A stretch of 64,000 nt of DNA, taken from the NCBI GenBank assembly GCA_012842395.1, contig DUSX01000020.1:43413-107412 (forward strand), given 5' to 3'. Position numbers and translations under genes: made by a program. The number at the start of each line of letters is the position of its first letter. Positions within the stretch are counted from its first letter, which is position 1. Positions 12,662 through 50,300 of the stretch are shown piece after piece. The DNA comes from Bacillota bacterium. GTDB taxonomy: Bacteria > Bacillota > SHA-98 > UBA4971. The notes beneath the pieces were generated by a model. The model saw nothing but the letters and a program-made list of their open reading frames with translations. It did not search any database and had not been told where the DNA came from.

Positions 12662-13051
12662 TCATTTCTCGTGCTTCAACCACTCCTTGGGGACGTGAAT
12701 ACACGCGTCCCGGCGCACGGACTTGCCGTATGCCGCCAAGGTGTTGGAGAGCTTGCTCATGAGCTGCTTGCCGATGCCAGACTCCCTAGGCAACTTCAGG
12801 AACCACCTCGGGAGCACTTTTTCTGTATCCCTTCCGTCCTTGCTATGCCCGTGGTTGTAACGGGTTGCGCGCATGTTCTTGTACCCGATGAACTTGCGAG
12901 GTCCGAAGGCGTCTAGTTCAGGGATGTAATACCAGTGGCGGAATAGGCACAAGGAGGTGATCCCGGGCTCTCCTCTCGACAAGTCAGCGTTGAATTGCCG
13001 GACATTCTCAACGATCTCATCGTATGAATTGACGAGCTCGAAGTATGACAC
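12662..13051 (-). CDS. Hypothetical protein (~129 aa), last gene of the SbcD-like/SMC-like cluster
   Basis: ORF 12662-13093. The preferred start is GTG 13051 (VSYFELVNSYDEI...), 6 nt after AGGAGAAGGGGGGGA. It contains FRHWYYIPELDAFGPRKFIGYKNMRATRYNHGHSKDGRDTEKVLPRWF. I could not assign a family. Confidence 0.6.
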   Translation of the reverse strand: MSYFELVNSYDEIVENVRQFNADLSRGEPGITSLCLFRHWYYIPELDAFGPRKFIGYKNMRATRYNHGHSKDGRDTEKVLPRWFLKLPRESGIGKQLMSKLSNTLAAYGKSVRRDACIHVPKEWLKHEK

Positions 13052-13094
13052 CAAGCGTCCCCCCCTTCTCCTGTCATGGGTCGCCCGTCTCACA

Positions 13095-13127
13095 GCTGCA
13101 TGGCCGAACCCTCGAAGTCCATGCAGC
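13095..13127. repeat. 9-bp perfect inverted repeat (GCTGCATGG ... CCATGCAGC, 15-nt loop) between the SMC-like gene and the small ORF
   Basis: Read directly from the sequence at 13095-13103 and 13119-13127. No U-tract follows on either strand. Confidence 0.7.
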
Positions 13128-13237
13128 GGCGCCCGCTGCCAACGAGCCTCGCTCTCCCGCGGTAGGCCACCTACCCTCGTACTAAGATCCTCGGACCATG
13201 CCCAGCCGCTAAGCCCGCGTACGGCAGCACGCGCTGT

Positions 13238-27883: not shown

Positions 27884-27886
27884 CCG

Positions 27887-30454: not shown

Positions 30455-30457
30455 CTG

Positions 30458-35308: not shown

Positions 35309-36793
35309 CTACGAAGTGCGAGTGGCGAAGTGGTCGTAGCCGGCCGGGGACAGGTCCGTAGTCTTCCCGCTCGCGGTGACGAGCTTTACCCCTCTCTCGC
35401 TGGGCACGATCTCGCCAACGACGTAAAGGCGCCCCCCTACCGAGGCCAGGCAGCGGGAGGCGGCTTCCGTCTGATCGCGCTTGAAAGTGAACACGAGTTC
35501 GTAATCCTCGCCGCCGAACAGCGCCCAGTGGAGAGGATCGCGGCCGAGCGCGCGTCCCGCCGCCGCGGTGGCCTCGCTGATGGGCACATCCGCTGCGTAC
35601 ACCACGACCCCGACGCCGCTTTCCTCGGCGATGTGATTGACCTCGTTGGCAAGGCCGTCGCTTATGTCCATCATAGCGGTGACCGCTCCGCTCGCGGCGA
35701 GCGCGTGGCCCTCGGGCACCCGCGGCATGGGCTCAAGGTGCGCCCTAACAAGCTCCTGCGCCCACGAGGGGTGGGCGCCGACCGCCGGGCCGCCGCCCAC
35801 GTAGGATGGATGAGAGCCCTCAGCCCCGCCTTCTAGTGCTGACGGATGAGAGCGCGCTGCCCCACCGCGCGTCTGAGGCGGGTGAGAGGCGGTCGCCGCG
35901 CCTAACTGGGACGGGTGGTGGTAGTCGCTCATCTCGACGCCTGCGCCACCCCGGCCTGCGTCCTCGCCGCCGACATCTCGCCGATCATGTCCCTCCTCCC
36001 TCTCCAGGCAGTGAAGGAGCCACGCGAGTCCCGCCGCGGAGGCGCCCAGGGGTCCCGTGACGGCCACGAGATCGCCGGGCCGCGCGCCCGCCCTGGTGAC
36101 GGGCGAGTCCGCCTGCCCTATGATCGCAACGTCTATGACGATCGCGTGAGGAGACTTGACCGTATCTCCGCCCACGATCTCAACGCCGAAGCGCTCCGCG
36201 ACAGCCAGCATGCCGTCGTATACGGCGTCCACGTAGGAGTCGTCGACGCTCTCGTTGAGCCCAATCGAAGCGAGCGCGTAGAGCGGAACGCCGCCCATGG
36301 CGGCGATGTCGCTCACGTTCACTGCAAGCGCTTTCCATCCGAGCTGCCAAGGGGTGATGAGCCGCCTATCGAAGTGGACGCCCTCGACGAGCATGTCGAT
36401 GCTGGCGAGGAGGCGTCCGCGAGGCGGTTGCAGCACCGCGGCGTCGTCGCCGATCCCCAGGATCACTGTGTCCAGCAGGCCCGCCCCAACATCGCCGATG
36501 CGGTGATGATCACCGTGACCGCCGCGGCCATCACACACATGCCGCGGGGCATCACGCTCGGCAAACCCGCCCGGCCCACCAGGCTTGCCGAGGCTGCCGG
36601 CCTCTCCCAAGTGCGCCGCGGCCACGCGTCGCCTTATGCGGCCGATGAGGCCGAATTCGCCCCCCGCGATGCCACCAGCACCGCGCACGCCACGTTCCCG
36701 CCCGGCATCCCCTCTGCTTCCTCTGCTTCCTCCCGCTTGCGCCTCACGTTCCATCCTAGCTCGACCGCCTTTCAAGCCTTCCAAGAGCTTCAT
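35309..36793 (-). CDS. thiL: Thiamine-monophosphate kinase ThiL with low-complexity insertions
   Basis: GEFGLIGRI, LGIGDDAAVL, SIDMLVEGVHF, ALAVNVSDIAAMGG, GGDT, ...GGEDYELVF. Alternative start at ATG 36754. Confidence 0.85.
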   Translation of the reverse strand: MKLLEGLKGGRARMEREAQAGGSRGSRGDAGRERGVRGAGGIAGGEFGLIGRIRRRVAAAHLGEAGSLGKPGGPGGFAERDAPRHVCDGRGGHGDHHRIGDVGAGLLDTVILGIGDDAAVLQPPRGRLLASIDMLVEGVHFDRRLITPWQLGWKALAVNVSDIAAMGGVPLYALASIGLNESVDDSYVDAVYDGMLAVAERFGVEIVGGDTVKSPHAIVIDVAIIGQADSPVTRAGARPGDLVAVTGPLGASAAGLAWLLHCLEREEGHDRRDVGGEDAGRGGAGVEMSDYHHPSQLGAATASHPPQTRGGAARSHPSALEGGAEGSHPSYVGGGPAVGAHPSWAQELVRAHLEPMPRVPEGHALAASGAVTAMMDISDGLANEVNHIAEESGVGVVVYAADVPISEATAAAGRALGRDPLHWALFGGEDYELVFTFKRDQTEAASRCLASVGGRLYVVGEIVPSERGVKLVTASGKTTDLSPAGYDHFATRTS

Positions 36794-37661
36794 CCACGAT
36801 TGTCCGAAGATCGCGGGCCGCGCCCCTTATGTCGTCAGCGGCCACGACCGCCGATACGACGGCGATTCCAGCGACCCCCGTTGCCATCACCTCCGCGGCG
36901 TTACTCTTCGATACCCCGCCTATCGCGACCACGGGCAGGCGAGTGGCGCGCACGATCTCCTCCAGGCCCGCGAGACCGAGAGGGGCCACTGCGGCGTACT
37001 TCTTGGTGTCGGTCGGGAACACCGCCGCGGTCCCGAGGTAGTCCGCACCGAGCCCCTCCGCCTCCGCGGCCTGCTCGGCGTTGTGCACGGTCAGGCCTAT
37101 TATCCTGCCGGGTCCCAGAAGCTTGCGGGCGAGCGGCACGGGGAAGTCTTCCTGGCCGAGATGGACGCCATCGGCGTCCACGGCCATGGCCACGTCAACG
37201 CGATCGTTCACGATGTACAGGACCCCCATGTCCCTCGTGATGCGCCGCAGCCTGAGCCCTACCTCCACCATGCGCCCGGCGTCCCAGTCCTTCGCGCGGA
37301 ACTGGATGGCTGTCGCGCCGCCAGCGATGGCAAGCGACACGACCTCCTCCTCTTCCCGCCCCCTCGCAAGGTTTCTATCGGTTACCACATAAAGCCTAAG
37401 GCCCTGAAAGAGCCTCGCCCGCATTGCCTGCATCGCCCCGGTAGCCTCTACCGCGGGCGCAGGCTGCCCTGGCCCTGGCTGCGCCGGCACTGGCATCCCT
37501 GGCCATCGTCCCTGTCCGCCTGGTGCGCCTTGGCCTCCCGGCCCTTCCTCGCCTCCGCCTTGGCCTCTGCGCTGGTCCGGGGACCACCCGCCTCGGCCTC
37601 CGTCTCCGCCGCCGCCTCCTCCGCTGCCCCACTTGCCGTTCTCGCTTCCACAAGGCCTCAT
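36756..37661 (-). CDS. thiE: Thiamine-phosphate synthase ThiE, possibly with a Gly-rich N-terminal extension
   Basis: LYVVTDRNL...AIQFRAKD...VNDRVDVAMAVDADGVHLGQED...GLTVHN...ADYLGTAAVFPTDTK...VVAIGGV. ATG 37661 forms an ATGA overlap with the thiM stop. Alternative start at MQAM (37433). Confidence 0.85.
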   Translation of the reverse strand: MRPCGSENGKWGSGGGGGGDGGRGGWSPDQRRGQGGGEEGPGGQGAPGGQGRWPGMPVPAQPGPGQPAPAVEATGAMQAMRARLFQGLRLYVVTDRNLARGREEEEVVSLAIAGGATAIQFRAKDWDAGRMVEVGLRLRRITRDMGVLYIVNDRVDVAMAVDADGVHLGQEDFPVPLARKLLGPGRIIGLTVHNAEQAAEAEGLGADYLGTAAVFPTDTKKYAAVAPLGLAGLEEIVRATRLPVVAIGGVSKSNAAEVMATGVAGIAVVSAVVAADDIRGAARDLRTIVDEALGRLERRSS

Positions 37662-38554
37662 CTCTCGCACCCCGCTTCCATCCTCACCTTGAGGCCATGC
37701 GCGAGCTCCTCCGGGGTCATGTTGAATAGGCAGTCGAACAGCGCCGCCTGGAAGCTCCCCGGCCCCTCGCTCTTCGCCGCTGCCCGCTCGGCCGCGTAGC
37801 CGTAGTAGGCGAGACCCGCCGCCGCGGCGACGAGCGCGTCCTCTTCGACCGCCGCGAACGCCGCCACGACAGACGTGGCCATGCAGCCTGTGCCCGTCAC
37901 GTGACGCAGCATAGGATGGCCGTTTTCTACGAGTGCCAAGCGGCGTCCGTCGCTCACGAAATCCGTCGCTCCCGTAACGGCCACGACGCACCCGAGCTTT
38001 CTAGCGGTCTCGCACGCGAGGGCGGCTTTGTCGTGGTGCCCGCTCACGGAGTCCACACCCTTGATCGTGCCGCCAAACCCGCCTATGACCGAGACCTCGG
38101 CCTCGTTTCCGCGGAGGACGGAAACCCTCACTTCGGACAGGATGCGCCGCACGCTCTCGGTGCGCAGGGGCGTCGCGCCCGCGCCCACCGGGTCGAGCAC
38201 TACCGGGACCGAGCGCTCGTTCGCGGCCCTCCCCGCCAGGATCATGGCTTCGACGAGCTCAGGGGTAAGGGTGCCGATGTTGAGGACGAGCGCCCTCGCC
38301 GCGCCTGCCATGTCCCGGACCTCCTCCAGCGCATGCGCCATCACGGGAGACGCACCCACGGCCAGGGTGACGTTGGCCGTTATGTTCGTGACGACGACGT
38401 TCGTGATGTGGTGCACGAGCGGAGCCTGCTCCCTCACCCTTCGAAGGACTTCAGGAGCACGCTGTCTCAGATCGCTCGTCGTTACGGCCTCGTTCATCCT
38501 CTGCGATGTCTTCTCATCTGCATCTTTTGCATGCTTTCCCACGTCCTCTCGCAC
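37658..38554 (-). CDS. thiM: Hydroxyethylthiazole kinase ThiM
   Basis: PLVHHITNVVVTNITANVTLAVGASPVMA...VLDPVGAGAT...GTGCM. The start is uncertain (alternative MNEAV at 38497). Confidence 0.88.
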   Translation of the reverse strand: MREDVGKHAKDADEKTSQRMNEAVTTSDLRQRAPEVLRRVREQAPLVHHITNVVVTNITANVTLAVGASPVMAHALEEVRDMAGAARALVLNIGTLTPELVEAMILAGRAANERSVPVVLDPVGAGATPLRTESVRRILSEVRVSVLRGNEAEVSVIGGFGGTIKGVDSVSGHHDKAALACETARKLGCVVAVTGATDFVSDGRRLALVENGHPMLRHVTGTGCMATSVVAAFAAVEEDALVAAAAGLAYYGYAAERAAAKSEGPGSFQAALFDCLFNMTPEELAHGLKVRMEAGCER

Positions 38555-38831
38555 CCCCTATCGCATATCCCCAACCTCATCTCGCACATCCGACCTCGTC
38601 GAACCGTCTCGGGTTCATGTGAGATGTCTTGTCGAGCCAGCCATGGCCAAGGCCCGGACCCTCTTCAACGCCGCTGCCACCTCCCCACTGCCAGGTGCCT
38701 GCCCATGTCCCCGTCCCCGTCCGCTACTGCCCGCTCACCGACCGCTCCCTGCCCGCCTCCCATCTGCTCCCGAAGTGCTCGCAACCCGCTCCGCGCCTGC
38801 CTGCTTGCCTCGTGCCTGACTTACTCGCCGC

Positions 38832-39716
38832 TCACCTGGCCTCCCGCCCCCGCCTGGCCGCTCGCCCGGCCGACCGCCGGAAGTAGAAGTGGTTGGTGGG
38901 CCCGCATCCGTGGCCCAATGAAAGCGAGTTCGCCACCGCCCAGGTGATGTAGTCCTTGGCGGCCCGCAGCGCATCCGGGACCTCCAGGCCCAGGGCGAGA
39001 TATGCCGCTATGGCCGCGGAATACGTACATCCGGTGCCGTGTGTGTTCGCGGTGGCGTAACGCCTGGCGCAGAGCTCGATGAGCTCCTCGCCGTTGAACG
39101 CTATGTCCACCGAATCCCCGGATTGGTCCTGCAGGTGGCCGCCCTTCACCACGACCCACTCCGGCCCCATGTCTTTCAGCCTCTGCGCGGCAAGCCGCGC
39201 GTCCGACGTGCTCTTGATCGCAACGCCCAGGATAGCCTCGGCCTCGGGAATGTTGGGAGTGATCACGGTGGCGAGCGGCAGCAGGCGCCGGACGAGAGCG
39301 TCTCTCGCGTCGGGTGCCAAAAGCGGCGCGCGGGTCTTGCTCACCATCACGGGGTCCACGACCAAGTTCCGCACCGAGTGCCGCTGGATGGCGTCTGCTA
39401 CCGCATCTATGATGGCTGCGGTGGCAAGCATTCCGGTCTTGGCAGCGTCCACCTGCAAGTCGGTCAGGACCGCGTCCAGCTGGGCGACGACGAAGCCCGG
39501 GTCGAGCACGGAGACCCCCGGCACGCCGAGGGTGTTCTGAGCGGTCACGGCGGTGAGCGCGACCGCCCCGAACACGCCGAGAGACGTGAATGTCTTGAGG
39601 TCCGCCTCTATCCCCGCTCCTCCGCCGCTGTCCGACCCGGCGATCGTGAGAGCCACGGGGACTCGCTCGGGCTCGGTGCGCGCGAAATCGGGTGCCATGT
39701 ATCTCGAGATCCTCAC
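38832..39716 (-). CDS. thiD: Hydroxymethylpyrimidine/phosphomethylpyrimidine kinase ThiD
   Basis: VALTIAGSDSGGGAGIEADLKTF...TAQNT...DPVM...TPNIPEAE...VVKGGH...HGTGCT. Confidence 0.9.
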   Translation of the reverse strand: MRISRYMAPDFARTEPERVPVALTIAGSDSGGGAGIEADLKTFTSLGVFGAVALTAVTAQNTLGVPGVSVLDPGFVVAQLDAVLTDLQVDAAKTGMLATAAIIDAVADAIQRHSVRNLVVDPVMVSKTRAPLLAPDARDALVRRLLPLATVITPNIPEAEAILGVAIKSTSDARLAAQRLKDMGPEWVVVKGGHLQDQSGDSVDIAFNGEELIELCARRYATANTHGTGCTYSAAIAAYLALGLEVPDALRAAKDYITWAVANSLSLGHGCGPTNHFYFRRSAGRAARRGREAR

Positions 39717-39760
39717 TGTGAAGTCACCTCGGGCTTTCCTAAACGAAAATACGCTCTGTT

Positions 39761-41071
39761 TCAGCGCGGCATAGAGTAAGATGCGACAGCACTATCCGCT
39801 GGCGTACTAAACCTGGACGCCCACCGGATCATCCCCAATACATAAATCACACTAGCGGCTGTAAGGCTCGGTATCGATGCCCCCGTGGAGAGGCCGTTCT
39901 CAGTACACGCATAGTACGTGACCACACCTGTGACCCACGCAATCATGGCAATGGGGTTCACGCCGTGGACGTACCAGTATGCGCCTCCGCGTTTGAAGAG
40001 CTCCTGAACCGACAGCTTCCTCCGCCTAAGAAGGAAATAGTCCGCCAAGACGATCCCGAACAAGGGCACAAAAACGCCCCCTATGAGCAGAAGGAAACTT
40101 TCATAGCGCTCGATGGGAAAGACGGCCGCCACCAGGGTGCCGATGAACCCAGCCGCAAGAATGAGATGCCCCTCGCGCAACTGCGGGAATAGGTTCTGAG
40201 TGGACACGGCAGTTGAGTACACATCGAGGAAAGCGGTTGTGATCGTAGAGAAAGCCACTATGACCAACGCAACTGCTCCAATCTCCAGCCCTGTGAGAAT
40301 CTCGACTACATCTGCTGTCCCCGCGGCTAAAGAAGAGATTAAGCCAATCGCATACATGAGGAAGCTCGAGACGAAGTATCCTATCCAGCATCCGAAGAAC
40401 GACCCTGTCCCCCCTCTTCCGAACCTTGAGTAGTCGGCGACTAAGGGAAGCCATGATAGAGGCATCGCTATTACCAGGTCAGTCGCGTACCCAAAACCCA
40501 TGCCTCCGCCCTCGTTTGCCGCCTGGAGGCCACCTAGACCGCGCGTTGACAGGAGCCTGTACCCCACATAGAGGCTTAGCACGAGAAGCAGACCAGAGAC
40601 AATAGGCTCGAGCCATCTCCAACCCTTACGGCCCGACCACGCCCAGGCGGTCGTCGCCGCGCCCATCGCTACCACCCACGTCAGGTAGCCTGAGAAGCCC
40701 CAGAGCTGCGAGCTCAGAGCGTTCAGTGCCTTAGCCGCGACGACCAGCATCACGGCCGTCCATCCTACGAGCTGGACCACGTTCAACACAGCCGCCAGAT
40801 ACGAGCCTCTGACTCCGAAAGACGGCCTCACCGAGACCATCGACGGGATCCCGTGATCCGTGCCAACCACACCACCGAGGGCGAGGAGCGTGTTGCCCAG
40901 AAGATGTCCCAAGAAGTTCGCCGCTATTCCCGCCAGAAGACCGGCTGGAGCCAGAAAGCCGCCTGCCAGCACCTCGGCAAGGGATATGCCCGCACCCACC
41001 CATATGAAAAAGAATGCCCCCGGACCCATGGTTCGTTGGTCCACAGGAATTGCTTCAACCTCTGTTGCCAC
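39761..41071 (-). CDS. cytX: NCS1/cytosine-permease-family transporter, putative hydroxymethylpyrimidine transporter CytX
   Basis: A 12-TM-like hydrophobic protein (FFFIWVGAGISLAEVLAGG...). GTG start after GGAGGG. It lies immediately downstream of a TPP riboswitch and upstream of thiD. Confidence 0.7.
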   Translation of the reverse strand: MATEVEAIPVDQRTMGPGAFFFIWVGAGISLAEVLAGGFLAPAGLLAGIAANFLGHLLGNTLLALGGVVGTDHGIPSMVSVRPSFGVRGSYLAAVLNVVQLVGWTAVMLVVAAKALNALSSQLWGFSGYLTWVVAMGAATTAWAWSGRKGWRWLEPIVSGLLLVLSLYVGYRLLSTRGLGGLQAANEGGGMGFGYATDLVIAMPLSWLPLVADYSRFGRGGTGSFFGCWIGYFVSSFLMYAIGLISSLAAGTADVVEILTGLEIGAVALVIVAFSTITTAFLDVYSTAVSTQNLFPQLREGHLILAAGFIGTLVAAVFPIERYESFLLLIGGVFVPLFGIVLADYFLLRRRKLSVQELFKRGGAYWYVHGVNPIAMIAWVTGVVTYYACTENGLSTGASIPSLTAASVIYVLGMIRWASRFSTPADSAVASYSMPR

Positions 41072-41376: not shown

Positions 41377-41934
41377 CACCGTCGCTCTGTCGCGGTGCTG
41401 CTGGGCAGTGCCGCGCGCTGCGTCGCTTGGTCACTAGAGCTCCGCGCGGCCGCCCTGGCCGCCGACTAGCGCCGCCCGTTGGCTTGGTGGTGGCTTTTGC
41501 TCCCCCACGGAACGGTCACGTATGCATCTTTCACTAGGATTATAGCCCGGCGTTTCCTCTCGCGTCAATGATTCCCTCGAGAAGGCATGGGACCCCGTTT
41601 GCATAACACGCCGGCGGCGTAAGCACCACGCCATGGGGGCTCGGGTCGCCGCCACGAGTACGTTCCCCCGTGAGCCAACGAGCCCCCTCCGAGCACGTCT
41701 TCGTGCGACCGCCTTCTCACGTTAGCAGGCAACAGGCGGTTCGCTCGACCGAGCCTCCCTCCGTCCCCTCCCTTGCTTCAACCCTCCCTCGACGCTCGAC
41801 CTCCGACCTTCGACCCTCGATCTTGCTACAACGGCAGAGCCAGGACCGCAGGGCCAGAACGGAAGAGGAGGAATCCGTTACCCCGCGTCGAAATTCCAGA
41901 AAGGTTGAACAAGAAGTATCTAGCAAGAGTTACA

Positions 41935-42046
41935 TGCTTCTCCGAGTCCCCCGGCCTAAGGTTCGGCGTATAGCTCCAGCTATGGCGGGCGGACCGGCAG
42001 GGTGTGTCGGGAAACGGACACGCCTCCCATCACGGAAAGGAGAGCA
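41935..42046 (+). promoter_or_regulatory. Candidate Moco/Tuco (molybdenum/tungsten cofactor) riboswitch
   Basis: UGCUUCUCCGAGUCC (5' block), hairpin GUGUC-GGGAAACG-GACAC, then GCCUCCC, 5 nt, GGAAAGGAGAGCA. The 5' UGCU-U-CUCC can pair with the 3' GGAG-AGCA (P1). From memory, the block order and spacing match the E. coli moaA leader (...CUUCGCCUCCCGUAUCUGGAAAGGUGU...). Confidence 0.55.
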
Positions 42047-42359
42047 GGCAATCCTGACTGGGTCGCGCCTTGTGTTTCGGCCGGGCCCTGCCGCCTTTTC
42101 GTGGCACCCGGCCTTCGCTATTCCCGGGGTAAGTTCGTTGTCTCCGGGACGGGTACGAGAGAGCATGGCTGTGCGACCTTTGGGCCGGCTCATTATGCTA
42201 CGCTGTTCCGGGGCTTTATAGATAGCCAACCTCGAAATCAAACGAGCATCGGGCGCTTTCTCCGTGCCCTCGTACGTATACCGCGGCTCCTTTTGCTGTG
42301 CGCGGTCTAACTTCGAGCTTGGTTATCTGTAAAAGATGCTGTTCCGAGGAGGCTGCGAG

Positions 42360-43859
42360 ATGCGACGTCCTAGCGATGCGGTGTTCCAGTGCCAACCCAC
42401 GATGTTGATGTCGCGGGCACCCGAGGGAGTCGTACGGAACGGGGCCGGCTTTTCCTGCAAGAAGGCCACGAGGCCAGCGCTAGTCTTGCTGGTCTCGTTT
42501 GCGGTGCTCGCAGCGTGCGTCCTCGGCGTGGCTCTGGTGGGACACTGCGCCGGCCTATCCGGTCTATCCGGCGCATCCAGCCTGCCCGCCCTGTCCTGCC
42601 TACCCGGTCTATCTGGCCTTCCGGGCTTGTCCGGCTTGTCAGGCCTGTCCGGCCTACCCGGCTTCCCTGGGCTTCCCGGCCTCTCGCAGGGCGGCCTCAC
42701 CTTCGCCGTGGTGGGTGACAGTCAAGGGAGGACCCCGGTCTGGGAACGCATCGTGGACGCCCTCAACGCGGCACGCCCCGCTTTCGTCCTGCACTGCGGG
42801 GACATGGTCGCGTCGGGAGCGCGCGAGCAGTATGAGGAGTTCGTTAAGCAGGTCGAGAGGCTCCGCATGCCCTGGTACGCCGTGCCGGGGAACCACGACG
42901 TCCGCGGGGAGGGCGCGAAGCTGTTCACGGAGTTCACCGGCAAGAACCGATATTACTCGTTCGTGGAGAAGGGTTACCGTTTCATCGGGCTGGATAGCTC
43001 CGCGGCGGCGCTCGACGCCGAGCAAATGGCGTGGCTCGAGCGAGAGCTCGCGCAAGGCGGCCCGAAGTTCGTATTCATGCACGTCCCTCTCTTCGACCCT
43101 CGTCCGGGCGGCGATCATTGTTTCCTTGACGCCGAACAGGCGCGCCGCCTCCAGCGCCTCTTTCGGGACCACGAGGTGCTGGCGGTCTTCAGCGGACACG
43201 TCCACCTCTTCAGCAGCCGGACGCTGGACGGCGTCACGTACGTGACGACAGGCGGCGCCGGCGCGCCTCTCTATGCGTCCCGTGCCGAGGGCGGGTTCTA
43301 CCACTACGCGCTCGTCCGTGTGAGCGGCAACCGGGTGAGCGTCGAGGCGAAGCAGGTCGCCGTCAAAATAGAGGAGCCTCGCGTCAGGGTGATCGGGCCG
43401 AAGGGCGAAAAGGAGTTTACCCTCGGTGACCTGGCCCTCCTGCCGTCGGTAGAGGCCGCGAGCGCGTTCGAGAACCAATTCGGAAACGTGTCGGGCGGCG
43501 GTACTTACAAGGGCGTCCTCGTGGCGACCCTCCTCGAGCAGGTCGGAGGCATCCGCCCAGGCCAGACCCTCGTGGTCCGTTGCACCGATGGCTATTCGCA
43601 GGAGTTCGGATACGAGAACGTGCATGTCTCGAAGGATTGGGCCAAGCTGCAGGGCCCCATGGTCCTCGCTTACGAGAAGGACGGCAAGACTCCCCCTGAG
43701 TGGGCCGAGGGATCGCGCTTGATCTTCGCGCCGCCTGACGGCGTGTACGGCAACGACGACTGCCGGTTGACGTCCCTTCCCGGGCAGGGATGGAACGTCT
43801 ACAAGTCGGCGGGCGGGCGCTGGGCGCGCAACGTGTCGGTGATCGAGGTCAGGCCGTGA
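42360..43859 (+). CDS. Membrane-anchored metallophosphoesterase with a (G-L-S/P)n repeat linker and a C-terminal sulfite-oxidase-fold (molybdopterin-binding-like) domain
   Basis: Start ATG 42360, 7 nt after GAGGAGG. TM segment is ALVLLVSFAVLAACVLGVALV. The repeat reads GLSGLSG...GLPGLSGLSGLSGLPGFPGLPGLS. Phosphoesterase motifs are VVGDSQG, HCGDMV, PGNHD, FMHVP and SGHVH. The C-terminal domain reads YKGVLVATLLEQVGG...RCTDGYSQEF...MVLAYEKDGK...VSVIEV. Confidence 0.8.
   Translation: MRRPSDAVFQCQPTMLMSRAPEGVVRNGAGFSCKKATRPALVLLVSFAVLAACVLGVALVGHCAGLSGLSGASSLPALSCLPGLSGLPGLSGLSGLSGLPGFPGLPGLSQGGLTFAVVGDSQGRTPVWERIVDALNAARPAFVLHCGDMVASGAREQYEEFVKQVERLRMPWYAVPGNHDVRGEGAKLFTEFTGKNRYYSFVEKGYRFIGLDSSAAALDAEQMAWLERELAQGGPKFVFMHVPLFDPRPGGDHCFLDAEQARRLQRLFRDHEVLAVFSGHVHLFSSRTLDGVTYVTTGGAGAPLYASRAEGGFYHYALVRVSGNRVSVEAKQVAVKIEEPRVRVIGPKGEKEFTLGDLALLPSVEAASAFENQFGNVSGGGTYKGVLVATLLEQVGGIRPGQTLVVRCTDGYSQEFGYENVHVSKDWAKLQGPMVLAYEKDGKTPPEWAEGSRLIFAPPDGVYGNDDCRLTSLPGQGWNVYKSAGGRWARNVSVIEVRP
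42552..42686 (+). repeat. About 15 tandem 9-nt units (GGYCTDYCN) encoding Gly-Leu-Ser/Pro triplets
   Basis: ggcctatcc ggtctatcc ggcgcatcc ... ggcttgtcc ggcttgtca ggcctgtcc ggcctaccc ggcttccct, read directly. Confidence 0.85.
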
Positions 43860-43905
43860 CATAGAATCACAGAGCAAGTCTCACCAGACCAAAGGAGGAT
43901 GAGGG

Positions 43906-44955
43906 ATGAGAAGGAATCGAGCGAACCGTGTGCGTGTGGTGCTTGCCGCGACCCTGGCGTCGGCCCTCGTGACCCTCGTGGCGACGGCTGGCGCACTCTT
44001 CCCAAGCGTCGCGTTGGCCTCGGACGACGCGTGGCAGGTCGAGGTCTTGGGCGGCGGCAAGACCGTTGTGCTCACGCAGTCCGATCTGGAGGGCATGTCG
44101 GCGGTGACGGCAGAGGCGGCGTTCCTGAAGACCACGGGAAAGATCGAGGGACCGTTCGAATTCAAGGGCGTATACATGGAAGACATCCTCGCGAGGGTCG
44201 GGGGCATCAGCCCGTCCGAGGCGATCCGCGTCACCGCGCGCGACGGCTACGCGATGACCTACACCTACTCCCAGGTCGGCGGGAACGTCCTGTCTTACAA
44301 TGAAAGCGGCGAGGTCCTCCGTACTGGTGGACTCGCCATGATCCTCGCGTACGAGTCGGGCGGCGACGCGGCGGCCGCCGAGAAGCTGCCGCGAATCGTG
44401 TACATCGCCAAGGACGGCTCTGCGCGCCCGCCCATCACCGACGGCCATTTCTGGACGAAGGCCGTGGCGAAGATCGAGGTCGTCTCGGGCGTGGAGGACT
44501 GGTCGATCAAGCTCAGCGGCGTGGAGCAGGCGCTTTTGGACAGGTCCACGTTCGAGAGCACTGTGACCTGCCCCTCGACGCCTCACCCCGCCGTGGTGTG
44601 GGAGACCACTGACAAGGAGGGCAACAAAGAAGTATATGAGGGTCTCCCGCTTTGGATCGTCGTCTCCATGATAGACGGGGGCGACGCGCCCGGAGGGCAT
44701 TACCTGTTCAACGACGACCTTGCGCGCCAAGGGTACAAGGTGCGGGTGATCTCGAGGGACGGCTACAGCGTGGACCTCGAGGCTTCGCTCGTGGCGCGTA
44801 ACAACAACATCATCCTGGCCTATAAGAAGAACGGCGAGCCCTTGCCCGAAGAGGACGCACCTCTCATGCTCGCCGGCAAAGACCTGCCGTCGCGAAAGTA
44901 CATGGTCAAGCAGATCGCCGAGCTGTCCCTGGTGGACCTGCCGGTCGGGAAGTAG
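43906..44955 (+). CDS. Secreted protein with two tandem sulfite-oxidase-fold (molybdopterin-binding-like) domains
   Basis: Signal peptide MRRNRANRVRVVLAATLASALVTLVATAGALFPSVALA. Copy a reads FKGVYMEDILARVGG...ARDGYAMTY...MILAYESGG...VAKIEVV. Copy b reads YEGLPLWIVVSMIDGG...SRDGYSVDL...IILAYKKNGEPL...IAELSLV. Confidence 0.75.
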   Translation: MRRNRANRVRVVLAATLASALVTLVATAGALFPSVALASDDAWQVEVLGGGKTVVLTQSDLEGMSAVTAEAAFLKTTGKIEGPFEFKGVYMEDILARVGGISPSEAIRVTARDGYAMTYTYSQVGGNVLSYNESGEVLRTGGLAMILAYESGGDAAAAEKLPRIVYIAKDGSARPPITDGHFWTKAVAKIEVVSGVEDWSIKLSGVEQALLDRSTFESTVTCPSTPHPAVVWETTDKEGNKEVYEGLPLWIVVSMIDGGDAPGGHYLFNDDLARQGYKVRVISRDGYSVDLEASLVARNNNIILAYKKNGEPLPEEDAPLMLAGKDLPSRKYMVKQIAELSLVDLPVGK

Positions 44956-45030
44956 CTCTGCGGTGCACAGGCGCGGCGGTGCAGCCCGCGTTCTACAGGG
45001 AGCGCCGCCAAGTTCCATGAGGGCTGCGGC

Positions 45031-46350
45031 ATGGTCTCTCCCTCCCCAAGGAATCGCCGGGCCAATGAAGCCAAGGAGGCATACGGGGCAGTGACGTCCA
45101 GAACATCTGTGAGAGGACGGGACTACTATTTCAGCACGCGCGACCTCGTCCTCATCGCTGTGGTCAGCGCCGCGGGAGGGGTCCTCAGTACCTACGTGGG
45201 GTATCTGGGGAACCTGCTCAACAAGGCTTTCGGCGTGCCGTTCGGCGCCGGGCAGTGGATGGCGGGGCTTCACGTGTTCTGGTTCGTGCTCGTGCGCGTG
45301 GCCGTGGGACGGACGGGCGCCGGCACCCTGGCAGGCGTCATCAAGGGCGTGGTTGAGATGTTCACGGGCAGCACCCACGGGCTGCCCATAGTGTTCATCT
45401 CGGCCGTCGAGGGCCTCCTGGTGGACGTGGTGCTTCTTCCGTTCCGGAGACCGTCGCTCCCGGCGCTCTGTTTGGCGGGGGGAGTTGCCTCGGCATCGAA
45501 CGTCCTGGTGTTCCAGGCGCTCTACTTTTCCGGCGTGTCCTGGGGCTACATCGCCTTGATGACCCTGTTCGCATTCGGGTCGGGAGTTGTGTTCGGGGGC
45601 TACTTCGCCGACGGCGTGCTGGCCATACTCGAAGAAGCGCGCATCATACGGCTGAAGGCGAAGTCGAGCGCGGCAGGTATGCCACCATCGCGCACGCAGG
45701 GGCCCGCGGCAAGCACCGGGGCCCCTGAGGCAAATGCCCCCGGGGCCGCAGCCATGGCTCCGACCGCGTCCGGCGCGCCTACCGCGGCCGGTGCGGCCGC
45801 CGGGACCGGGGCGGAGGCGTGGGGTGCGGCCGGGACCCGGGCTCGGGCCAGAGCTGAGGTCGAGCCTATCGCAAGGCGATCGTCCAGGCGGTCTAGCAAA
45901 ACCCGACTCGCCCTGACGCTCCTCATGTCACTGGCGCTGGCTGGAGGCGCCGTCTACTATTACGTCGAAGTCTTCGAGCCCTTCTGGACCGGCCCGACAT
46001 GCTCAGTCGAAGGCAAGGTGGCCAATCCCTATGTGTACCGGCCTGCAGACTTCGAGAATGAGGCCGTCACGGTGATGGCTGAGCTCAAGGGGCAGGTCAC
46101 CTACGTGCCACCCACCGAATACACGGGTGTCCCGCTCGCTCGGATCATCGAAAAAGCCCGCCCCGACGTGTCAGCTGCACGCGTGCGCGTACTGGCGTCC
46201 GACGGGTACGAGGCCGAGTTCGGTCTCGATGACATCATGAAGAACCGCGCCGTGATCCTGGTCCGGGACGCCGAAAACCTGCGGCTCATCGCCACGGGCT
46301 ACGAGGGCGGGTGCTGGGTACGGATGGTAACGCGGCTGGTGGTAGAGTGA
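45031..46350 (+). CDS. ECF transporter S (substrate-capture) component fused, via a low-complexity linker and an extra TM helix, to a sulfite-oxidase-fold-like domain
   Basis: The N-terminal ~200 aa are multi-TM (LVLIAVVSAAGGVLSTYVGYLGN...GLHVFWFVLV...GLLVDVVLLPF...). The linker is AKSSAAGMPPS...AAGTGAEAWGAAG. A TM segment LALTLLMSLALAGGAVYYYV follows. The domain reads YTGVPLARIIEKA...ASDGYEAEF...VTRLVVE. Confidence 0.7.
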   Translation: MVSPSPRNRRANEAKEAYGAVTSRTSVRGRDYYFSTRDLVLIAVVSAAGGVLSTYVGYLGNLLNKAFGVPFGAGQWMAGLHVFWFVLVRVAVGRTGAGTLAGVIKGVVEMFTGSTHGLPIVFISAVEGLLVDVVLLPFRRPSLPALCLAGGVASASNVLVFQALYFSGVSWGYIALMTLFAFGSGVVFGGYFADGVLAILEEARIIRLKAKSSAAGMPPSRTQGPAASTGAPEANAPGAAAMAPTASGAPTAAGAAAGTGAEAWGAAGTRARARAEVEPIARRSSRRSSKTRLALTLLMSLALAGGAVYYYVEVFEPFWTGPTCSVEGKVANPYVYRPADFENEAVTVMAELKGQVTYVPPTEYTGVPLARIIEKARPDVSAARVRVLASDGYEAEFGLDDIMKNRAVILVRDAENLRLIATGYEGGCWVRMVTRLVVE

Positions 46351-46419
46351 ACCGTGCGATGACGCAGCTTGCGCTGAAATGAGGCGCGTGGTGACCGGCT
46401 CATCCCGGATCGTGGCGGA

Positions 46420-48279
46420 ATGAGGCGTTTTGAGAGCATGGAGAAGGTTGTCAGAGTCTCGAACCTAACTGTCCGGTACCCAGGGAACGCCGCACCGGCA
46501 CTGAATAGCGTCGACCTAGCGCTCGAGGCCGGTGAATGCATGGTCGTGAGCGGTCCGAGTGGCTGTGGCAAGTCCACGCTCGCACTGTGCCTTGCGGGCT
46601 TCATACCGCACGCCATCGACGCGGACGTGACCGGCTCCGTGCGTGTGGCCGGTCTCGATCCAGCGCAGACCAGCGTTTATCATCTTGCCGAGTTCGTTGG
46701 TTTGGTGCAGCAGGACCCAGAGGCCCAGTTCTGCACCATGCGTGTGGACGACGAAGTAGCCTTCGGGCCGGAGAACCTGATGTGCGCGCCTGATGAAATT
46801 GCTCGCCGCGTGACGTGGGCGCTTGAGGCCGCGGGCGCATCTCACCTTCGCGGGCGCAGGCTCGCGGAGCTATCCGGGGGCGAAAAGCAGCGCGTCGCCC
46901 TCGCGGCCGTGCTCGCCATGCGTCCCAGCGTGCTTATTCTTGACGAGCCCACCGCCCACCTCGACCCGAGGGCCACCGGGGCGCTCGTGCGCCTCCTCGG
47001 GGAGATGCAGTCGCAGCTCGGCCTGGGGATCATCATCCTGGAACATAGGCCGGAGCGGTTTTTCGGCATCGCCAACCGGGTGGTGCGGTTATCCGAGGGC
47101 GCCGTCGCTTTCGACGGCCCGCCGCGCGAGCTCGCCGGGCCCGGGCGATGGGGTAACCCCGCGTGCCTCTCATGCGGCGACACTGCATCTGGCAGAAGGT
47201 CGCCAGGTGGCGGCGGGCTCCTCGCTCGGCGTACTGGACGCGCCGCGGTCGCCGAGAAGGGCGGCGAAGAAGACGCCGAAGAAGACGCCGAAGGACCGTG
47301 CCCCTGGACCAGCCACCCCTCGTCGGTTCGCGCTCCGGTTCTGGGCGGCGTTCAGGGCCGCCCGCAAGGCCGCGACGCGCAATGCCTCGCGCACGACGGC
47401 GGCGACGATGCGCAGGGCGCACCAAGCCCGCGCCCAGGTGCGGGCCCGGCCTCAGGCACAGGCGCAGGCCCAGGCACAGGCGCAGGTGTAGGCCCAGGCT
47501 CCGGGCCAGGCCAAGGGGACGCGCGGCAAGACACGGGACTTGGCACGCCTGGCCCGCCTCTCCTGCAGGTGTGCAGCCTCACCCAGAGATACGGGAACAA
47601 GATCGTCCTCCAGGATGTGGACCTGGAGGTCCGGAGCGGCGAGATCGTCGGAGTGATGGGCGACAACGGGAGCGGCAAGACGACCTTGCTCCTCAGCATA
47701 ATGGGGATCCTCCGGCCCGTTTCCGGGAGGGTCATGCTGGAGGGCGAGGACATCACGAACGTCCCGGTCTCGGCGCGCGCGAGGCGGATCGGGATGGTGT
47801 TCCAGAACCCCAACCACCAGCTTTTTACCGACCAAGTCTGGCGCGAGGTGGTCGCGGGGCCGCTCAGTCGTGGGGTGCCGGAGGCGGCGTGCCGTCCCGC
47901 GGCCGAGGCGCTTCTCGACCGGTTTGACCTCCTCGCGCTTCGCGCGAGCCACCCGTTGACCCTTAGCTACGGGCAGAAGCGCAGGCTGAACCTGGCGGCG
48001 ATCATGGTGAGCGAACCTAGCTTGCTGCTACTCGACGAGCCGTTCGTAGGACAGGATGCCCCGCGGGCGCGGGACTTGGCGCGCCTCCTCAATGACCTGG
48101 CGTGCTCGGGCAAGGGCATCCTCTTGGTGGGGCACGAGCCGAGCATCATGGCACAGTGTTGCGACCGCTTGATTTTCATGGACGGCGGGCGGATCGTGGT
48201 GGACGCGCCTGCGCGGGAAGCGTTTGCTGATTTCGAGAGGATGGGCTTGTGTGACTACGTGCCAAGGGCGTGGGCTTAG
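46420..48279 (+). CDS. Fused tandem ABC ATPase (EcfA-EcfA'-like) with a ~140-aa low-complexity inter-domain linker
   Basis: Two sets of motifs. First set: GPSGCGKST / LSGGEKQRVALA / LILDEPTAHLD. Second set: GDNGSGKTT / LSYGQKRRLNLA / LLLDEPFVGQD. Confidence 0.85.
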   Translation: MRRFESMEKVVRVSNLTVRYPGNAAPALNSVDLALEAGECMVVSGPSGCGKSTLALCLAGFIPHAIDADVTGSVRVAGLDPAQTSVYHLAEFVGLVQQDPEAQFCTMRVDDEVAFGPENLMCAPDEIARRVTWALEAAGASHLRGRRLAELSGGEKQRVALAAVLAMRPSVLILDEPTAHLDPRATGALVRLLGEMQSQLGLGIIILEHRPERFFGIANRVVRLSEGAVAFDGPPRELAGPGRWGNPACLSCGDTASGRRSPGGGGLLARRTGRAAVAEKGGEEDAEEDAEGPCPWTSHPSSVRAPVLGGVQGRPQGRDAQCLAHDGGDDAQGAPSPRPGAGPASGTGAGPGTGAGVGPGSGPGQGDARQDTGLGTPGPPLLQVCSLTQRYGNKIVLQDVDLEVRSGEIVGVMGDNGSGKTTLLLSIMGILRPVSGRVMLEGEDITNVPVSARARRIGMVFQNPNHQLFTDQVWREVVAGPLSRGVPEAACRPAAEALLDRFDLLALRASHPLTLSYGQKRRLNLAAIMVSEPSLLLLDEPFVGQDAPRARDLARLLNDLACSGKGILLVGHEPSIMAQCCDRLIFMDGGRIVVDAPAREAFADFERMGLCDYVPRAWA

Positions 48280-48985
48280 TAGGCTCAACCCGCTCGCCAA
48301 TCTGACGCTACTGGTCTCCTTCTGCGTGCTCGCCATTTGCGCGCAAAGCCCTGCACAAGCAGGAATTCTATTTGCGGCGGTCCTCGCCGGCCATGTGGCG
48401 AGCCGAATCCCGCCTTCGATCCTGTGGCGCAGAGTGCGCGGGATAGTTATCTTTGCGCTCGTGCTTTTCCTCAGCCAGCTCTTCCTCGCAAGCGGCGGAG
48501 AGGTGGCGTGGGGCGCCCGCGCTGCAAGCGGGATCCAGATGTCCCTGCGCTTCCTCAACATCGTCCTAGCGAGCCACTTATTCGTTAGCACAACCTCAGC
48601 GGAGGATCTCGCCTATACCCTCATGCGGCTGGGGCTTCCTTATCGGTATGGATTTACCCTCCTCATCGCCATGCGCTTCGTCCCCTATTTCCGGCTGCAA
48701 TCGAACACGGTGTTGCAGGCCCAAATGGTGCGCGGCATCGGCGTGGACCGCCCGTCCCTTAGGGGCATTTGGTGCATGGCCAGGTACACGTTGGTTCCGC
48801 TTGTCGTGACTGCGCTCGGCAAAGTGGAGAGCCTGGCCATCTCCATGGAGGGCCGCTGTTTCGGCCTGCACCCACGACGGACGTTCCTCCGCACCGTGCC
48901 GTTCCGCCCGGCCGATGCCGTCGTCATGGCAGCGGCCATCGCGGCCGCCGCGGCTGCAGCCACAGCCACGCTGCTCACCAGATGA
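48224..48985 (+). CDS. ecfT: ECF transporter transmembrane (T) component, CbiQ/EcfT family
   Basis: Multi-TM protein containing ...RLGLPYRYGFTLLIAMRFVPYF...MVRGI... (the EcfT Ala-Arg-Gly-type region). It overlaps the end of the ATPase gene. The start is ambiguous (TTG 48224 or GTG 48251). Confidence 0.75.
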   Translation: MLISRGWACVTTCQGRGLSRLNPLANLTLLVSFCVLAICAQSPAQAGILFAAVLAGHVASRIPPSILWRRVRGIVIFALVLFLSQLFLASGGEVAWGARAASGIQMSLRFLNIVLASHLFVSTTSAEDLAYTLMRLGLPYRYGFTLLIAMRFVPYFRLQSNTVLQAQMVRGIGVDRPSLRGIWCMARYTLVPLVVTALGKVESLAISMEGRCFGLHPRRTFLRTVPFRPADAVVMAAAIAAAAAAATATLLTR

Positions 48986-49088
48986 GTGCCCCAAGACGCG
49001 CTCGCCTAGGTAACAGGCGGGGACGGACCGCCGATCTCCGTGTGCAGACCGCGTTGGGGCCGAACCAGCCGGCTCTCGCGGGCTATAG

Positions 49089-50300
49089 CTATAGCCATTC
49101 GAGGGCCCGGTCCGCGATGGAGGCGATGACACCGCGGCGCAGGGAAATGGCTCCCTCAGGACACATTTCGTGGCAGCAGAAACACCGTATGCACCGATGG
49201 CGGTCTATCATTGCAGTCCCCCGCGCGATCGCCGCCGTCCCCGCCGCCGTCCCCGCGGAACCCACAGTGATGGCGCCGGGCGGGCACGACTCTGCGCACA
49301 CCCCGCACGCGACGCACTTCGCAGCGTCCACCCAGGGGATTGCGGTGACGTGCTTACGGACAGCCCTGACAACCGTGAATATGCCCGAAGTGGCTCGCGC
49401 CGCGGGCGGCAAGGCGAAGCCCGTCACGTGGAACTCTTCCGGGGGCGCCCCCACCACTTCTATCTCTTCAGGCCGCGTGCTGCCAGCGCTAACCTCCCGC
49501 GCCGCGCGCAGGTACGGCACGCGCATGGGGTCCACCCCGGCGAGCCGAAGGGCCACGACATCCAAGGCAACCGGGTCCTCCGACGCCAGTATGGCTCCGA
49601 TGTGCCTCGGCCGCCCGTGCGAAGGTCCGTCGCCGTCCATGGCTACGACCGCGTCGAGGATCGACAGGCGGGGCTTCACGAGGCCGGCAAGGTCCAACAA
49701 CATCAGGGAAAAGGCGCGGGGATCGTTGTACCTCAGATGCATGCGCAGTTTCTCGGCCCCTGGGATGCACCCGAAGAGGTTCTTCACGGCGCCCGTGAAC
49801 GTCATGAACCCATGGGTCTTCATCTTGCCGATGTTGATGACGGCCGAGGCGTCAACGATCGGCCGGGCAAGGACGAACTCCTTGCATACCCGGCCGGCCG
49901 GGTGCTTGCGCGCGACCCCGTCGTCGAAGGACACGAGGTCCACGCCCGCTTCACGGCAGACCGCGGCTATCCCGCACTTCGCCGCGACGCCGGACACGCT
50001 GCCGTGTCCGGGGCTGTCTCCCACCACGACCTTGGCCCCGGCCTGCTTGAACAAATCGAGAACGGCGCCTACGACAGCGGGATGGGTCGTCACCGCCCTC
50101 TCGGGCTGGTAGGGCGAGAGCATATTCGGTTTGACAACCACAAACCCGTCACGCGGACGGGGCAAGAACGCCTCGACGCCGCCGAGGAGGTCAGTGGCCA
50201 ACCTAACCGCGTGGGAGACATTGTCCTGCGAATATGACCTGCATGTAGCCAGAGCAACCTTGATCTTCAGCGTGATCCCTCCAGTCCGCATCCATGGCAA
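49089..50300 (-). CDS. DUF362 domain protein with C-terminal 2x[4Fe-4S] ferredoxin domain
   Basis: ...VVVKPNMLSPYQPERAVTTHPAVVGAVLDLF...VVGDSPGHG..., with C-terminal CVACGVCAESCP and CIRCFCCHEMCP. The start is ambiguous (TTG 50300, ATG 50291, or CTG after GGAGGG). Confidence 0.75.
   Translation of the reverse strand: MPWMRTGGITLKIKVALATCRSYSQDNVSHAVRLATDLLGGVEAFLPRPRDGFVVVKPNMLSPYQPERAVTTHPAVVGAVLDLFKQAGAKVVVGDSPGHGSVSGVAAKCGIAAVCREAGVDLVSFDDGVARKHPAGRVCKEFVLARPIVDASAVINIGKMKTHGFMTFTGAVKNLFGCIPGAEKLRMHLRYNDPRAFSLMLLDLAGLVKPRLSILDAVVAMDGDGPSHGRPRHIGAILASEDPVALDVVALRLAGVDPMRVPYLRAAREVSAGSTRPEEIEVVGAPPEEFHVTGFALPPAARATSGIFTVVRAVRKHVTAIPWVDAAKCVACGVCAESCPPGAITVGSAGTAAGTAAIARGTAMIDRHRCIRCFCCHEMCPEGAISLRRGVIASIADRALEWL

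Follow-up and report, generated by a model that had tools for sequence, protein, structure and literature searches.

Which genes are governed by a riboswitch of the molybdenum cofactor/tungsten cofactor (Moco/Tuco) class that stands before an energy-coupling factor (ECF) importer operon, in what way could it act on them, and what could such an importer carry? The question is raised by a 64,000-nucleotide (nt) stretch of a Bacillota contig (DUSX01000020.1; hereafter the window), in which the original prediction had placed a candidate Moco/Tuco riboswitch at 41935-42046, in the long leader of an ECF operon at 42360-48985. According to the present analysis the element is a bona fide Moco/Tuco-family riboswitch aptamer of the subclass lacking helix P3. 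It is quite probable that this P3-less aptamer, a cofactor-triggered terminator acting as an OFF switch and a feedback on the uptake operon belong together as one regulatory unit.

The aptamer and its conservation

The Rfam 15 scan of the whole window returned three matches above gathering scores, among them RF01055 (Moco RNA motif) at 41928-42058 on the plus strand with 69.2 bits (E = 1.3e-14), the curated gathering score of this family being 36 bits. The match is not truncated and covers model positions 1-135, i.e., the full model; it exceeds the segment originally proposed, which ran from the P1 5' to the P1 3' strand, by 7 nt on the 5' side and by 12 nt on the 3' side. Against a covariance model of orthologous aptamers (model R1) the window aptamer reached 142.5 bits. 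The class proposed earlier was thereby upheld in a cmsearch-type check, and all of the sequence blocks listed for it were found in place. The parts of the aptamer are as follows.

41928-42058, plus strand: Moco/Tuco riboswitch aptamer, P3-lacking variant (RF01055 match, model R1)
41935-41943, plus strand: P1 5' strand, UGCUUCUCC (RF01055 alignment; compensatory changes across 30 aptamers, helices 1-2)
41937-41949, plus strand: CUUCUCCGAGUCC block (read from sequence)
41946-41994, plus strand: P2, GUCCCCCGGCC / GGCGGGCGGAC (9 of 10 pairs changed on both sides)
41955-41960 and 41981-41985, plus strand: CCUAAG and UAUGG, the 11-nt GAAA-tetraloop receptor within P2 (read from sequence)
41970-41983, plus strand: AUAGC-UCCA-GCUAU hairpin, the distal extension of P2 (sequence and RF01055 alignment)
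41995-41999, plus strand: CGGCA, the 5-nt junction between P2 and P4 that replaces P3 (P3 columns deleted in the RF01055 alignment)
42000-42025, plus strand: P4 hairpin with a GAAA tetraloop at 42011-42014 (7 of 10 pairs changed on both sides; 95% of cells paired)
42004-42021, plus strand: GUGUC-GGGAAACG-GACAC hairpin, abutting GCCUCCC at 42022-42028 (read from sequence)
42022-42046, plus strand: conserved 3' core, GCCUCCC, 5 nt (AUCAC) and GGAAAGG at 42034-42040 (invariant alignment columns; Rfam consensus)
42034-42046, plus strand: GGAAAGGAGAGCA block after AUCAC (read from sequence)
42039-42046, plus strand: P1 3' strand, GGAGAGCA, overlapped by the GGAAAGG core (RF01055 alignment)

The core elements CUCCGAG, GCCUCCC and GGAAAGG, the P4 GAAA tetraloop and its receptor in P2 are all present in the window aptamer, and only the P3 hairpin, by which the P3-containing Moco type is recognised, is missing from an otherwise intact core. 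The consensus-like P1, P2 and P4 drawn in the original prediction are correct; its "further hairpin" proved to be the distal part of P2, and the deletion of P3 had been missed. Pairing of P1 was confirmed too, but the accompanying idea that P1 sequesters GGAG as a ribosome-binding site fails, since these nucleotides belong to the conserved aptamer core and no start codon follows them. Taken by itself the RNA is ordinary, another confirmed member of a described class that automated Rfam annotation can find.

Related loci were collected with the ECF S-component fusion protein (45031-46350) as the search handle, for which 490 of the scored candidates reached E ≤ 0.001; 80 related genome loci were fetched, among them 51 bacterial and also archaeal ones. 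RF01055 exceeded its gathering score in 10 of the 11 loci scanned first and in all eight more distant loci tested, two copies being present in three of these, and the Rfam scans yielded 23 related aptamers above this score in total. For a wider search a covariance model was built from 11 aptamers; it gave 29 matches in 26 loci, which together with the window make 30 aptamers, all on the coding strand, and no match in the archaeal loci among the 80. The P3-less aptamer thus heads this operon in 26 of the 51 bacterial loci, which supports its assignment as a riboswitch of the downstream ECF genes.

Standard pairs fill 90.4% of the cells in the alignment of the 30 aptamers, and changes on both sides are seen in 23 of the 31 pairs, so that the helices expected to be conserved in orthologous leaders are conserved there with compensatory changes; covariation backs P1, P2, P4 and a short P5. 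None of 500 shuffles reached the observed pairing and covariation values, and when the 3' partners were slid by 1-3 columns, only 39-50% pairing was left and the covariation score fell from 0.50 to about 0.12. The P2-P4 junction is 5 nt long and reads CNNNN in all 30 aptamers (CGNNA in 28), and P3 occurs in none of them. Folding of the whole leader as a single sequence neither reproduced the consensus fold nor gave significant stability; covariation was relied on instead.

Some observations concern the fetched loci themselves. The contig of locus L003 (JBLNCC010000025.1) is labelled "Betaproteobacteria bacterium", and its riboswitch, leader, operon and thiamine pyrophosphate (TPP) riboswitch are almost identical to those of the window and of loci from Bacillota metagenome-assembled genomes (MAGs); the contig is probably mis-binned. 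The fetched flanks also hold two regulatory RNAs of unrelated kinds, a cyclic di-GMP (c-di-GMP-I) riboswitch (L014, 14795-14880; 87 bits) and a T-box leader (L017, 13164-13424; 113 bits).

The leader and its expression platform

By aligning the window leader with its four closest relatives (L001-L004) and comparing the leaders, a terminator-like hairpin was recognised downstream of the aptamer. The features of the leader from this hairpin to the first gene are the following.

42079-42113, plus strand: terminator-like hairpin with outer stem GGCCGGG/CCCGGCC, inner stem UGCCGC/GUGGCA and loop CUUUUC (-23.7 kcal/mol)
42087-42100, plus strand: antiterminator partner (truncated-transcript folding)
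42114-42124, plus strand: weak U-rich tail UUCGCUAUUCC after the hairpin (5 U in 9 nt)
42217-42331, plus strand: 115-nt insertion with 20-nt imperfect terminal inverted repeats (gap in the closest relative, L003)
42347-42362, plus strand: Shine-Dalgarno GAGGAGG (42347-42353) and ATG start (42360) of gene 1 (read from sequence, list of open reading frames)

The hairpin begins 33 nt past the end of P1 and is kept in L001, L002, L003 and L004, where the substitutions preserve the pairing of the inner stem (G-U to A-U, U-A to U-G). Homologous hairpins with canonical tracts of 6-7 U are found in L032 (UUUUUCAUU), L029 (UUCUUUAUU) and L010 (CUUUGUUGU), and in an automated scan, some picks of which are uncertain, each of the 30 aptamers was followed by a terminator-like hairpin whose 9-nt tail holds at least 4 U. 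The earlier remark that no clear terminator follows the aptamer is therefore superseded, but the companion remark that no plausible open reading frame (ORF) follows GGAG holds: no start codon is usable after the P1 GGAG, and the sole nearby ORF is a 20-codon TTG frame 28 nt away. This frame was considered as a leader ORF and rejected, as nothing was found in its favour.

An alternative pairing joins the aptamer core to the hairpin, CCUGC (42087-42091) being complementary to GCAGG (42044-42048) and CCUUUUC (42094-42100) to GGAAAGG (42034-42040). A window transcript that ends before the 3' arm of the terminator folds as this antiterminator with -28.4 kcal/mol (duplex, -18.8 kcal/mol). In truncated transcripts the same folding recurs in L001, L032, L055, L029 and L010, making six lineages with the window, and in L029 and L010 the partner differs (GCUCUUUUCC) with the pairing retained. 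The case for the antiterminator is built on this recurrence across lineages, not on single-sequence statistics. The expression platform is probably a ligand-dependent transcription terminator that is OFF when the cofactor is abundant.

The following course of events would fit these features. When plentiful, the pterin metal cofactor, most likely its tungsten form Tuco and otherwise Moco, would bind the aptamer and lock P1 with the GGAAAGG core; the hairpin at 42079-42113 could then form, and transcription would stop ahead of the operon. With scarce cofactor, the segment from GGAAAGG to GCAGG would pair with the segment from CCUGC to CCUUUUC, and the resulting antiterminator would permit read-through into 42360-48985. 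The riboswitch would in this way exert an end-product feedback on the uptake of something needed to make the molybdenum or tungsten (Mo/W) cofactor.

In the window gene 1 starts about 315 nt downstream of the P1 GGAG and has its own GAGGAGG. This long distance, pointed out as an oddity in the original prediction, is real and belongs to the lineage: in L001, L002 and L004 the first gene apparently opens, on reading of the alignment, at a TTG after GAGGGGGUG, about 45-50 nt past the hairpin, and the window and L003 share a different, longer N-terminal coding region of gene 1. The gap of roughly 300 nt to the start codon is a lineage peculiarity, not a feature of the class. Part of it is the 115-nt insertion, the arms of which are complementary at 17 of 20 positions (0 expected by chance) and were missed, being imperfect, by the inverted-repeat tool. 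No second copy was found in the window or in the 80 loci; a miniature mobile element is one possible origin of the insertion, a structured insert particular to this lineage another.

On the other side of the intergenic region the minus strand carries a TPP riboswitch (RF00059, 41269-41381; 64 bits, gathering score 54.3), which diverges from the Moco/Tuco riboswitch and heads a thiamine operon at 35309-41071 (minus strand); L003 has the same arrangement. This operon contains genes for an NCS1-family permease (39761-41071), ThiD (38832-39716), a ThiE-containing protein (36756-37991) and a ThiL-like protein related to AIR synthase (35309-36793). Upstream of the TPP riboswitch lies a sigma-70-like promoter match (TTGACG-18-TATAAT, 41568-41539, minus strand), and the intergenic region has no other.

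The putatively controlled operon and its relatives

Five genes make up the operon.

42360-43859, plus strand: gene 1, membrane anchor, Gly-Leu-Ser/Pro repeat linker, GpdQ/Rv0805-like metallophosphoesterase and C-terminal domain resembling sulfite oxidase (SUOX) (family scans)
43906-44955, plus strand: gene 2, secreted protein with signal peptide and two SUOX-like (Oxidored_molyb-like) domains (family scans)
45031-46350, plus strand: gene 3, YkoE-like ECF S component (PF09819), seventh transmembrane helix and SUOX/PruR-like domain (scans, model)
46420-48279, plus strand: gene 4, fused EcfA-EcfA' ATPase (two ABC_tran; ECF_ATPase_1 and ECF_ATPase_2, about 316-320 bits)
48224-48985, plus strand: gene 5, EcfT of the CbiQ family, end of the operon (CbiQ / ECF_T_CbiQ family matches)

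As S, T and two A components are encoded together, the system is a group I (dedicated) ECF transporter. Gene calls on the public contig place a convergent DUF362 gene after the operon. An ORF at 48769-50112 (plus strand) was examined as a sixth operon gene and rejected, as it has no family match and the convergent DUF362/ferredoxin gene is called there.

The metallophosphoesterase of gene 1 (Metallophos match 6e-19) has as its closest solved relatives the phosphodiesterases GpdQ (1.4e-08) and Rv0805, and its C-terminus resembles the gene 2 domains in tblastn. In gene 2 the same tool resolved two repeats (query residues 44-171 and 199-346); a sequence search against the Protein Data Bank (PDB) gave marginal sulfite-oxidase similarity only (E about 0.04), so that the fold assignment draws on the model of the S-component fusion (S-fusion) protein of gene 3. 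The AlphaFold model of the latter has a mean predicted local distance difference test (pLDDT) value of 79, with both domains mostly above 90. Its S component reaches a target template-modelling score (TM-score) of 0.79 against YkoE (5edl), and its C-terminal domain of about 115 amino acids (aa) matches SorA, SoxC, YedY and PruR (probability 1.00) as well as nitrate reductase in Foldseek. By sequence the family profile of gene 3 finds SoxC (1.7e-06) and SorA (2e-04), the alignment being limited to the C-terminal half of the Moco domain. These family scans and this model bear out the earlier statement that proteins of the operon carry Moco-binding-fold domains, the SUOX-fold domains being real. 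Judged from motif position, with AELKGQ set against the C-x-G-N motif of SUOX enzymes, a nearly invariant Leu seems to stand where the Mo-ligating cysteine would be.

Between the S component and the seventh transmembrane helix of gene 3 lies a basic linker rich in Ala and Gly. The two termini of an S component normally lie in the cytoplasm; together with the basic linker, the extra helix and the positive-inside rule this would put the SUOX-like domain outside the cell. An exported domain of this kind cannot have received Moco in the cytoplasm, and this makes the ectodomain more likely a capture domain than an enzyme. In all, four apparently extracytoplasmic SUOX/PruR-like domains would accompany the importer.

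Among the 80 loci the cluster occurs in Bacillota, Bipolaricaulota, Thermotogae, Thermoplasmata and Asgard-type archaea, and combines the phosphoesterase, one or more SUOX-like proteins and the S-fusion, EcfAA' and EcfT genes in varying subsets. The aptamer hosts are anaerobic Bacillota, e.g., Syntrophomonadaceae, Pelotomaculum and Thermovorax. In Thermovorax subterraneus (L019) the riboswitch is followed by a purple-acid-phosphatase-type esterase, an S-layer-anchored SUOX-like protein, a small SUOX-like protein and then the ECF genes. In L028 a P3-less riboswitch precedes a tupABC-like set, a MOT1-family transporter and then the phosphoesterase and ECF genes, and in L061 it precedes two TupA-like binding proteins followed directly by the S-fusion gene; the co-regulated binding proteins of both loci are closest to the model of TupA (tungstate), not of ModA. 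These variants reinforce a putative extracytoplasmic role tied to Mo/W. Family scans found no tup or wtp genes and no tungsten enzymes in the 64-kb window.

Two other gene types adjoin the cluster. A small gene of RIO/Bud32-like kinase fold (about 200-230 aa) is found beside it in about 31 of the 80 loci, in bacteria and archaea (e.g., L021 11469-12161, L061 11482-12174, L066, L077, L080 5828-6265 and L057 5825-6274), and is not present in the window; its product could phosphorylate what is imported, as a salvage kinase. Proteins of three to five tandem SUOX-like domains stand beside the cluster in L014, L008, L022, L066 and L074 (about 600-5500), and in L021 and L061 downstream of a second riboswitch (about 13000-17000). 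Some of these have S-layer-homology or dockerin modules (L019 5005-7233; L028 11668-12744), and in L021, L061 and L028 the tandem proteins are under their own second P3-less Moco/Tuco riboswitch.

The remainder of the window, with a GC content of 62% and its nearest loci labelled as Bacillota MAGs, contains several further features. A defence-island-like run at 23421-34072 (minus strand) is reminiscent of a BREX-type system and comprises genes for a PglZ-domain protein (23421-25037), an SNF2/helicase (24968-27883), a DNA methylase (27887-30454) and a 1204-aa DUF6079 protein (30458-34072). A single ORF of 3061 aa at 51743-60928 (minus strand) is likely real in view of its third-position GC of 0.78. 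Genes for an [FeFe]-hydrogenase large subunit and a Nuo51/NuoF-like flavoprotein at 2406-6747 (minus strand) are typical of an electron-bifurcating hydrogenase, and on this ground the source organism is probably a strict anaerobe. A transfer RNA gene of 85 nt with a long variable arm lies at 12075-12159 (plus strand; 51.6 bits).

Ligand, substrate and known systems

What the importer carries can be approached by analogy. TPP, flavin mononucleotide (FMN), tetrahydrofolate (THF), prequeuosine-1 (preQ1) and vitamin B12 riboswitches repress ECF or other importers of their own cofactors or precursors, and phosphorylated cofactors are usually salvaged by an esterase outside the cell, a binding domain, an importer and a kinase inside. 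From these two analogies a pterin of the molybdopterin type or a fragment of the cofactor, which the phosphoesterase would trim extracellularly, comes out as the leading guess at the substrate, a tentative one that falls short of an even chance. The outward GpdQ-like phosphoesterase would trim environmental cofactor, e.g., dinucleotide or phosphorylated forms, the SUOX/PruR-like ectodomains would capture the pterin, the YkoE-like S component with its own ectodomain would import it, and in many relatives the neighbouring RIO/Bud32-like kinase would re-phosphorylate the import inside the cell.

A number of points weigh against the combined reading of aptamer, terminator and uptake feedback and against the ligand and substrate attached to it. 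The transported substrate is deduced by analogy; to our knowledge, direct ligand binding to a P3-less Moco RNA has never been demonstrated. The U tract behind the window hairpin is poor (UUCGCUAUUCC / UUCGCUAUU, 5 U in 9 nt), and the consensus promoter and terminator scan of the window gave no plus-strand terminator, the tail lying below its threshold; this weak tail is the reason why both the scan and the earlier reader saw none. The antiterminator duplex of the window, taken alone, beats only about 92% of shuffled controls, and the minimum-free-energy fold of the aptamer alone misses the consensus fold and is of unexceptional stability (z = -1.26). About 235 nt, insertion included, separate the hairpin from the start codon, and extra or different control may operate in this lineage. 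In 10 related bacterial loci the cluster comes without any RF01055 match in the fetched sequence and, by the same Rfam scan, without a P3-containing Moco RNA; some other bacterial loci lacking the aptamer are truncated contigs. The association of riboswitch and cluster is frequent, not universal. Finally, the Tuco assignment of P3-less RNAs is a genomic correlation of 2008 with stated exceptions (Regulski et al. 2008, PMC2408646).

Other ways of control have also to be weighed. The E. coli moaA representative has been proposed to act translationally (PMC2408646), and here too the P1 3' strand includes GGAG, which a ligand-stabilised P1 might hide as a ribosome-binding site. Such a switch is most improbable in the window, where no ATG, GTG or TTG lies within reach of GGAG, the nearest being the TTG of the 20-codon frame, and where GGAAAGGAG is invariant aptamer core in all relatives irrespective of the gene start. 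Very unlikely as well is a decaying or inactive copy, in which remodelling of the gene's 5' end, together with the insertion and the weak U tail, would have cut the link to the operon: the long leader with its 115-nt insertion and the poor U tract would fit decay, but every conserved core position is intact, the score of 69.2 bits compares with 69.2-74 bits in relatives with short leaders, and the hairpin and the antiterminator complementarity are kept. Transcription termination thus stays the preferred platform.

As to the ligand, 58 of 176 Moco RNAs lacked P3 in Regulski et al. study, and this type correlated almost perfectly with Tuco metabolism (Regulski et al. 2008, PMC2408646), the P3-containing E. 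coli RNA responding to Moco and not to Tuco (PMC2408646). Tuco is accordingly given a slight preference over Moco. That the ligand is Moco, or that the aptamer is blind to the difference and the loss of P3 irrelevant to specificity, seems unlikely by comparison: the ligand core does not differ in its nucleotides from that of P3-containing members, the correlation has the exceptions already mentioned (PMC2408646), a modABC-like set adjoins the L061 locus and a MOT1-family molybdate transporter lies inside the controlled operon of L028, but P3 is missing from all 30 aptamers at this operon, and the co-regulated binding proteins are nearest to the TupA model. The affiliation of the hosts speaks against Moco, too. 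Tungsten enzymes are common among anaerobic Bacillota. The main rival for the substrate, though quite unlikely, is the tungstate or molybdate oxyanion itself; capture or delivery would then fall to the SUOX-like domains and the TupA-like proteins. ECF systems that take up metal ions are established (CbiMNQO and NikMNQO), and in L061 the S-fusion gene comes immediately after the genes of the two TupA-like proteins, in an operon that lacks TupB and TupC. Metal transport is, moreover, a classic component of Moco-riboswitch regulons (PMC2408646). The S component is, however, YkoE-like, i.e., of the type for an organic substrate (5edl), and not CbiM- or NikM-like, and the known ligands of the SUOX fold are pterins, not free oxyanions (PMC11194511). 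The conserved extracytoplasmic phosphodiesterase would have no obvious role in oxyanion import, and in L028, where the operon already has a full tupABC-like set and a MOT1-like transporter, the ECF system would be redundant.

The ECF transporter class itself was discovered through riboswitch regulons, which repeatedly exposed vitamin transporters (PMC3766115), and Moco is said to require de novo synthesis, with C. elegans as the sole known organism with uptake (PMC9026282). A riboswitch for the Mo/W cofactor that consistently precedes an uncharacterised ECF importer with pterin-binding-type domains, apparently outside the cell, makes this regulon a concrete and testable, if unproven, candidate for microbial Mo/W-pterin salvage. 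Still more tentative than the substrate guess is the proposal that salvage of the Mo/W pterin cofactor or its pterin moiety would here be met in a prokaryote for the first time. If microbes do take up this unstable cofactor or its pterin, the Mo/W enzyme capacity deduced from anaerobe and archaeal genomes would need rethinking, and a handle on cofactor exchange within syntrophic communities would be gained. At least 30 natural P3-less aptamers with terminator platforms also form a useful set for the question of Moco versus Tuco specificity left from 2008.

In comparison with the Moco RNA motif (RF01055; E. coli moaA leader; PMC2408646) the element shares helices P1, P2, P4 and P5 with the conserved core, the GAAA tetraloop and its receptor, the position in a 5' leader, here of genes putatively related to Mo/W, and, as predicted, the end-product OFF logic. 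Unlike the moaA leader, it has no P3 and a probable terminator/antiterminator instead of sequestration of the ribosome-binding site, and unlike usual Moco RNAs it would control not moa, mod or a molybdoenzyme but an ECF importer operon without characterised function, whose proteins have SUOX-like folds and which TupA-like and MOT1-like genes join in L061 and L028. With the P3-lacking "Tuco-type" Moco RNAs (Regulski et al. 2008) it has in common the P2-P4 junction, anaerobic Firmicutes-type hosts and, in related loci, the co-occurrence of TupA-like tungstate-transporter genes. The association with phosphoesterase, SUOX-like and ECF genes is absent from the full-text literature searched, in which no paper brings ECF transporters together with a Moco/Tuco riboswitch, with tungsten or with molybdopterin, an earlier survey listing of the S-component family being possible. 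One paper on cobalt CbiMNQO was set aside as irrelevant to this link.

Established pairs of vitamin or cofactor riboswitches with ECF systems are TPP with ThiT/YkoEDC, FMN with RibU, THF with FolT, preQ1 with QueT and B12 with CbrT, and we know of no ECF system for a molybdopterin-type cofactor. The present locus would share with these pairs a cofactor-sensing RNA that represses ECF uptake, its S component being structurally closest to YkoE (5edl). It differs from them in the seventh transmembrane helix and external SUOX-like domain of the S component and in the secreted binding-domain proteins and phosphoesterase that the operon adds. The nearest counterpart of these domains is PruR (PDB 7kos, 7rkb), a truncated SUOX fold without the Mo-ligating cysteine and a periplasmic binder of free pterins (PMC11194511). 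Both are small, truncated SUOX folds assigned to the outside of the cytoplasm, the Foldseek target TM-score of the modelled S-fusion C-terminal domain to PruR being about 0.6 at only 17-21% sequence identity. PruR is a proteobacterial signalling protein with the partner DcpA; in the Bacillota and archaea treated here, a transporter and a phosphoesterase accompany the domain, which is either fused to them or encoded alongside.

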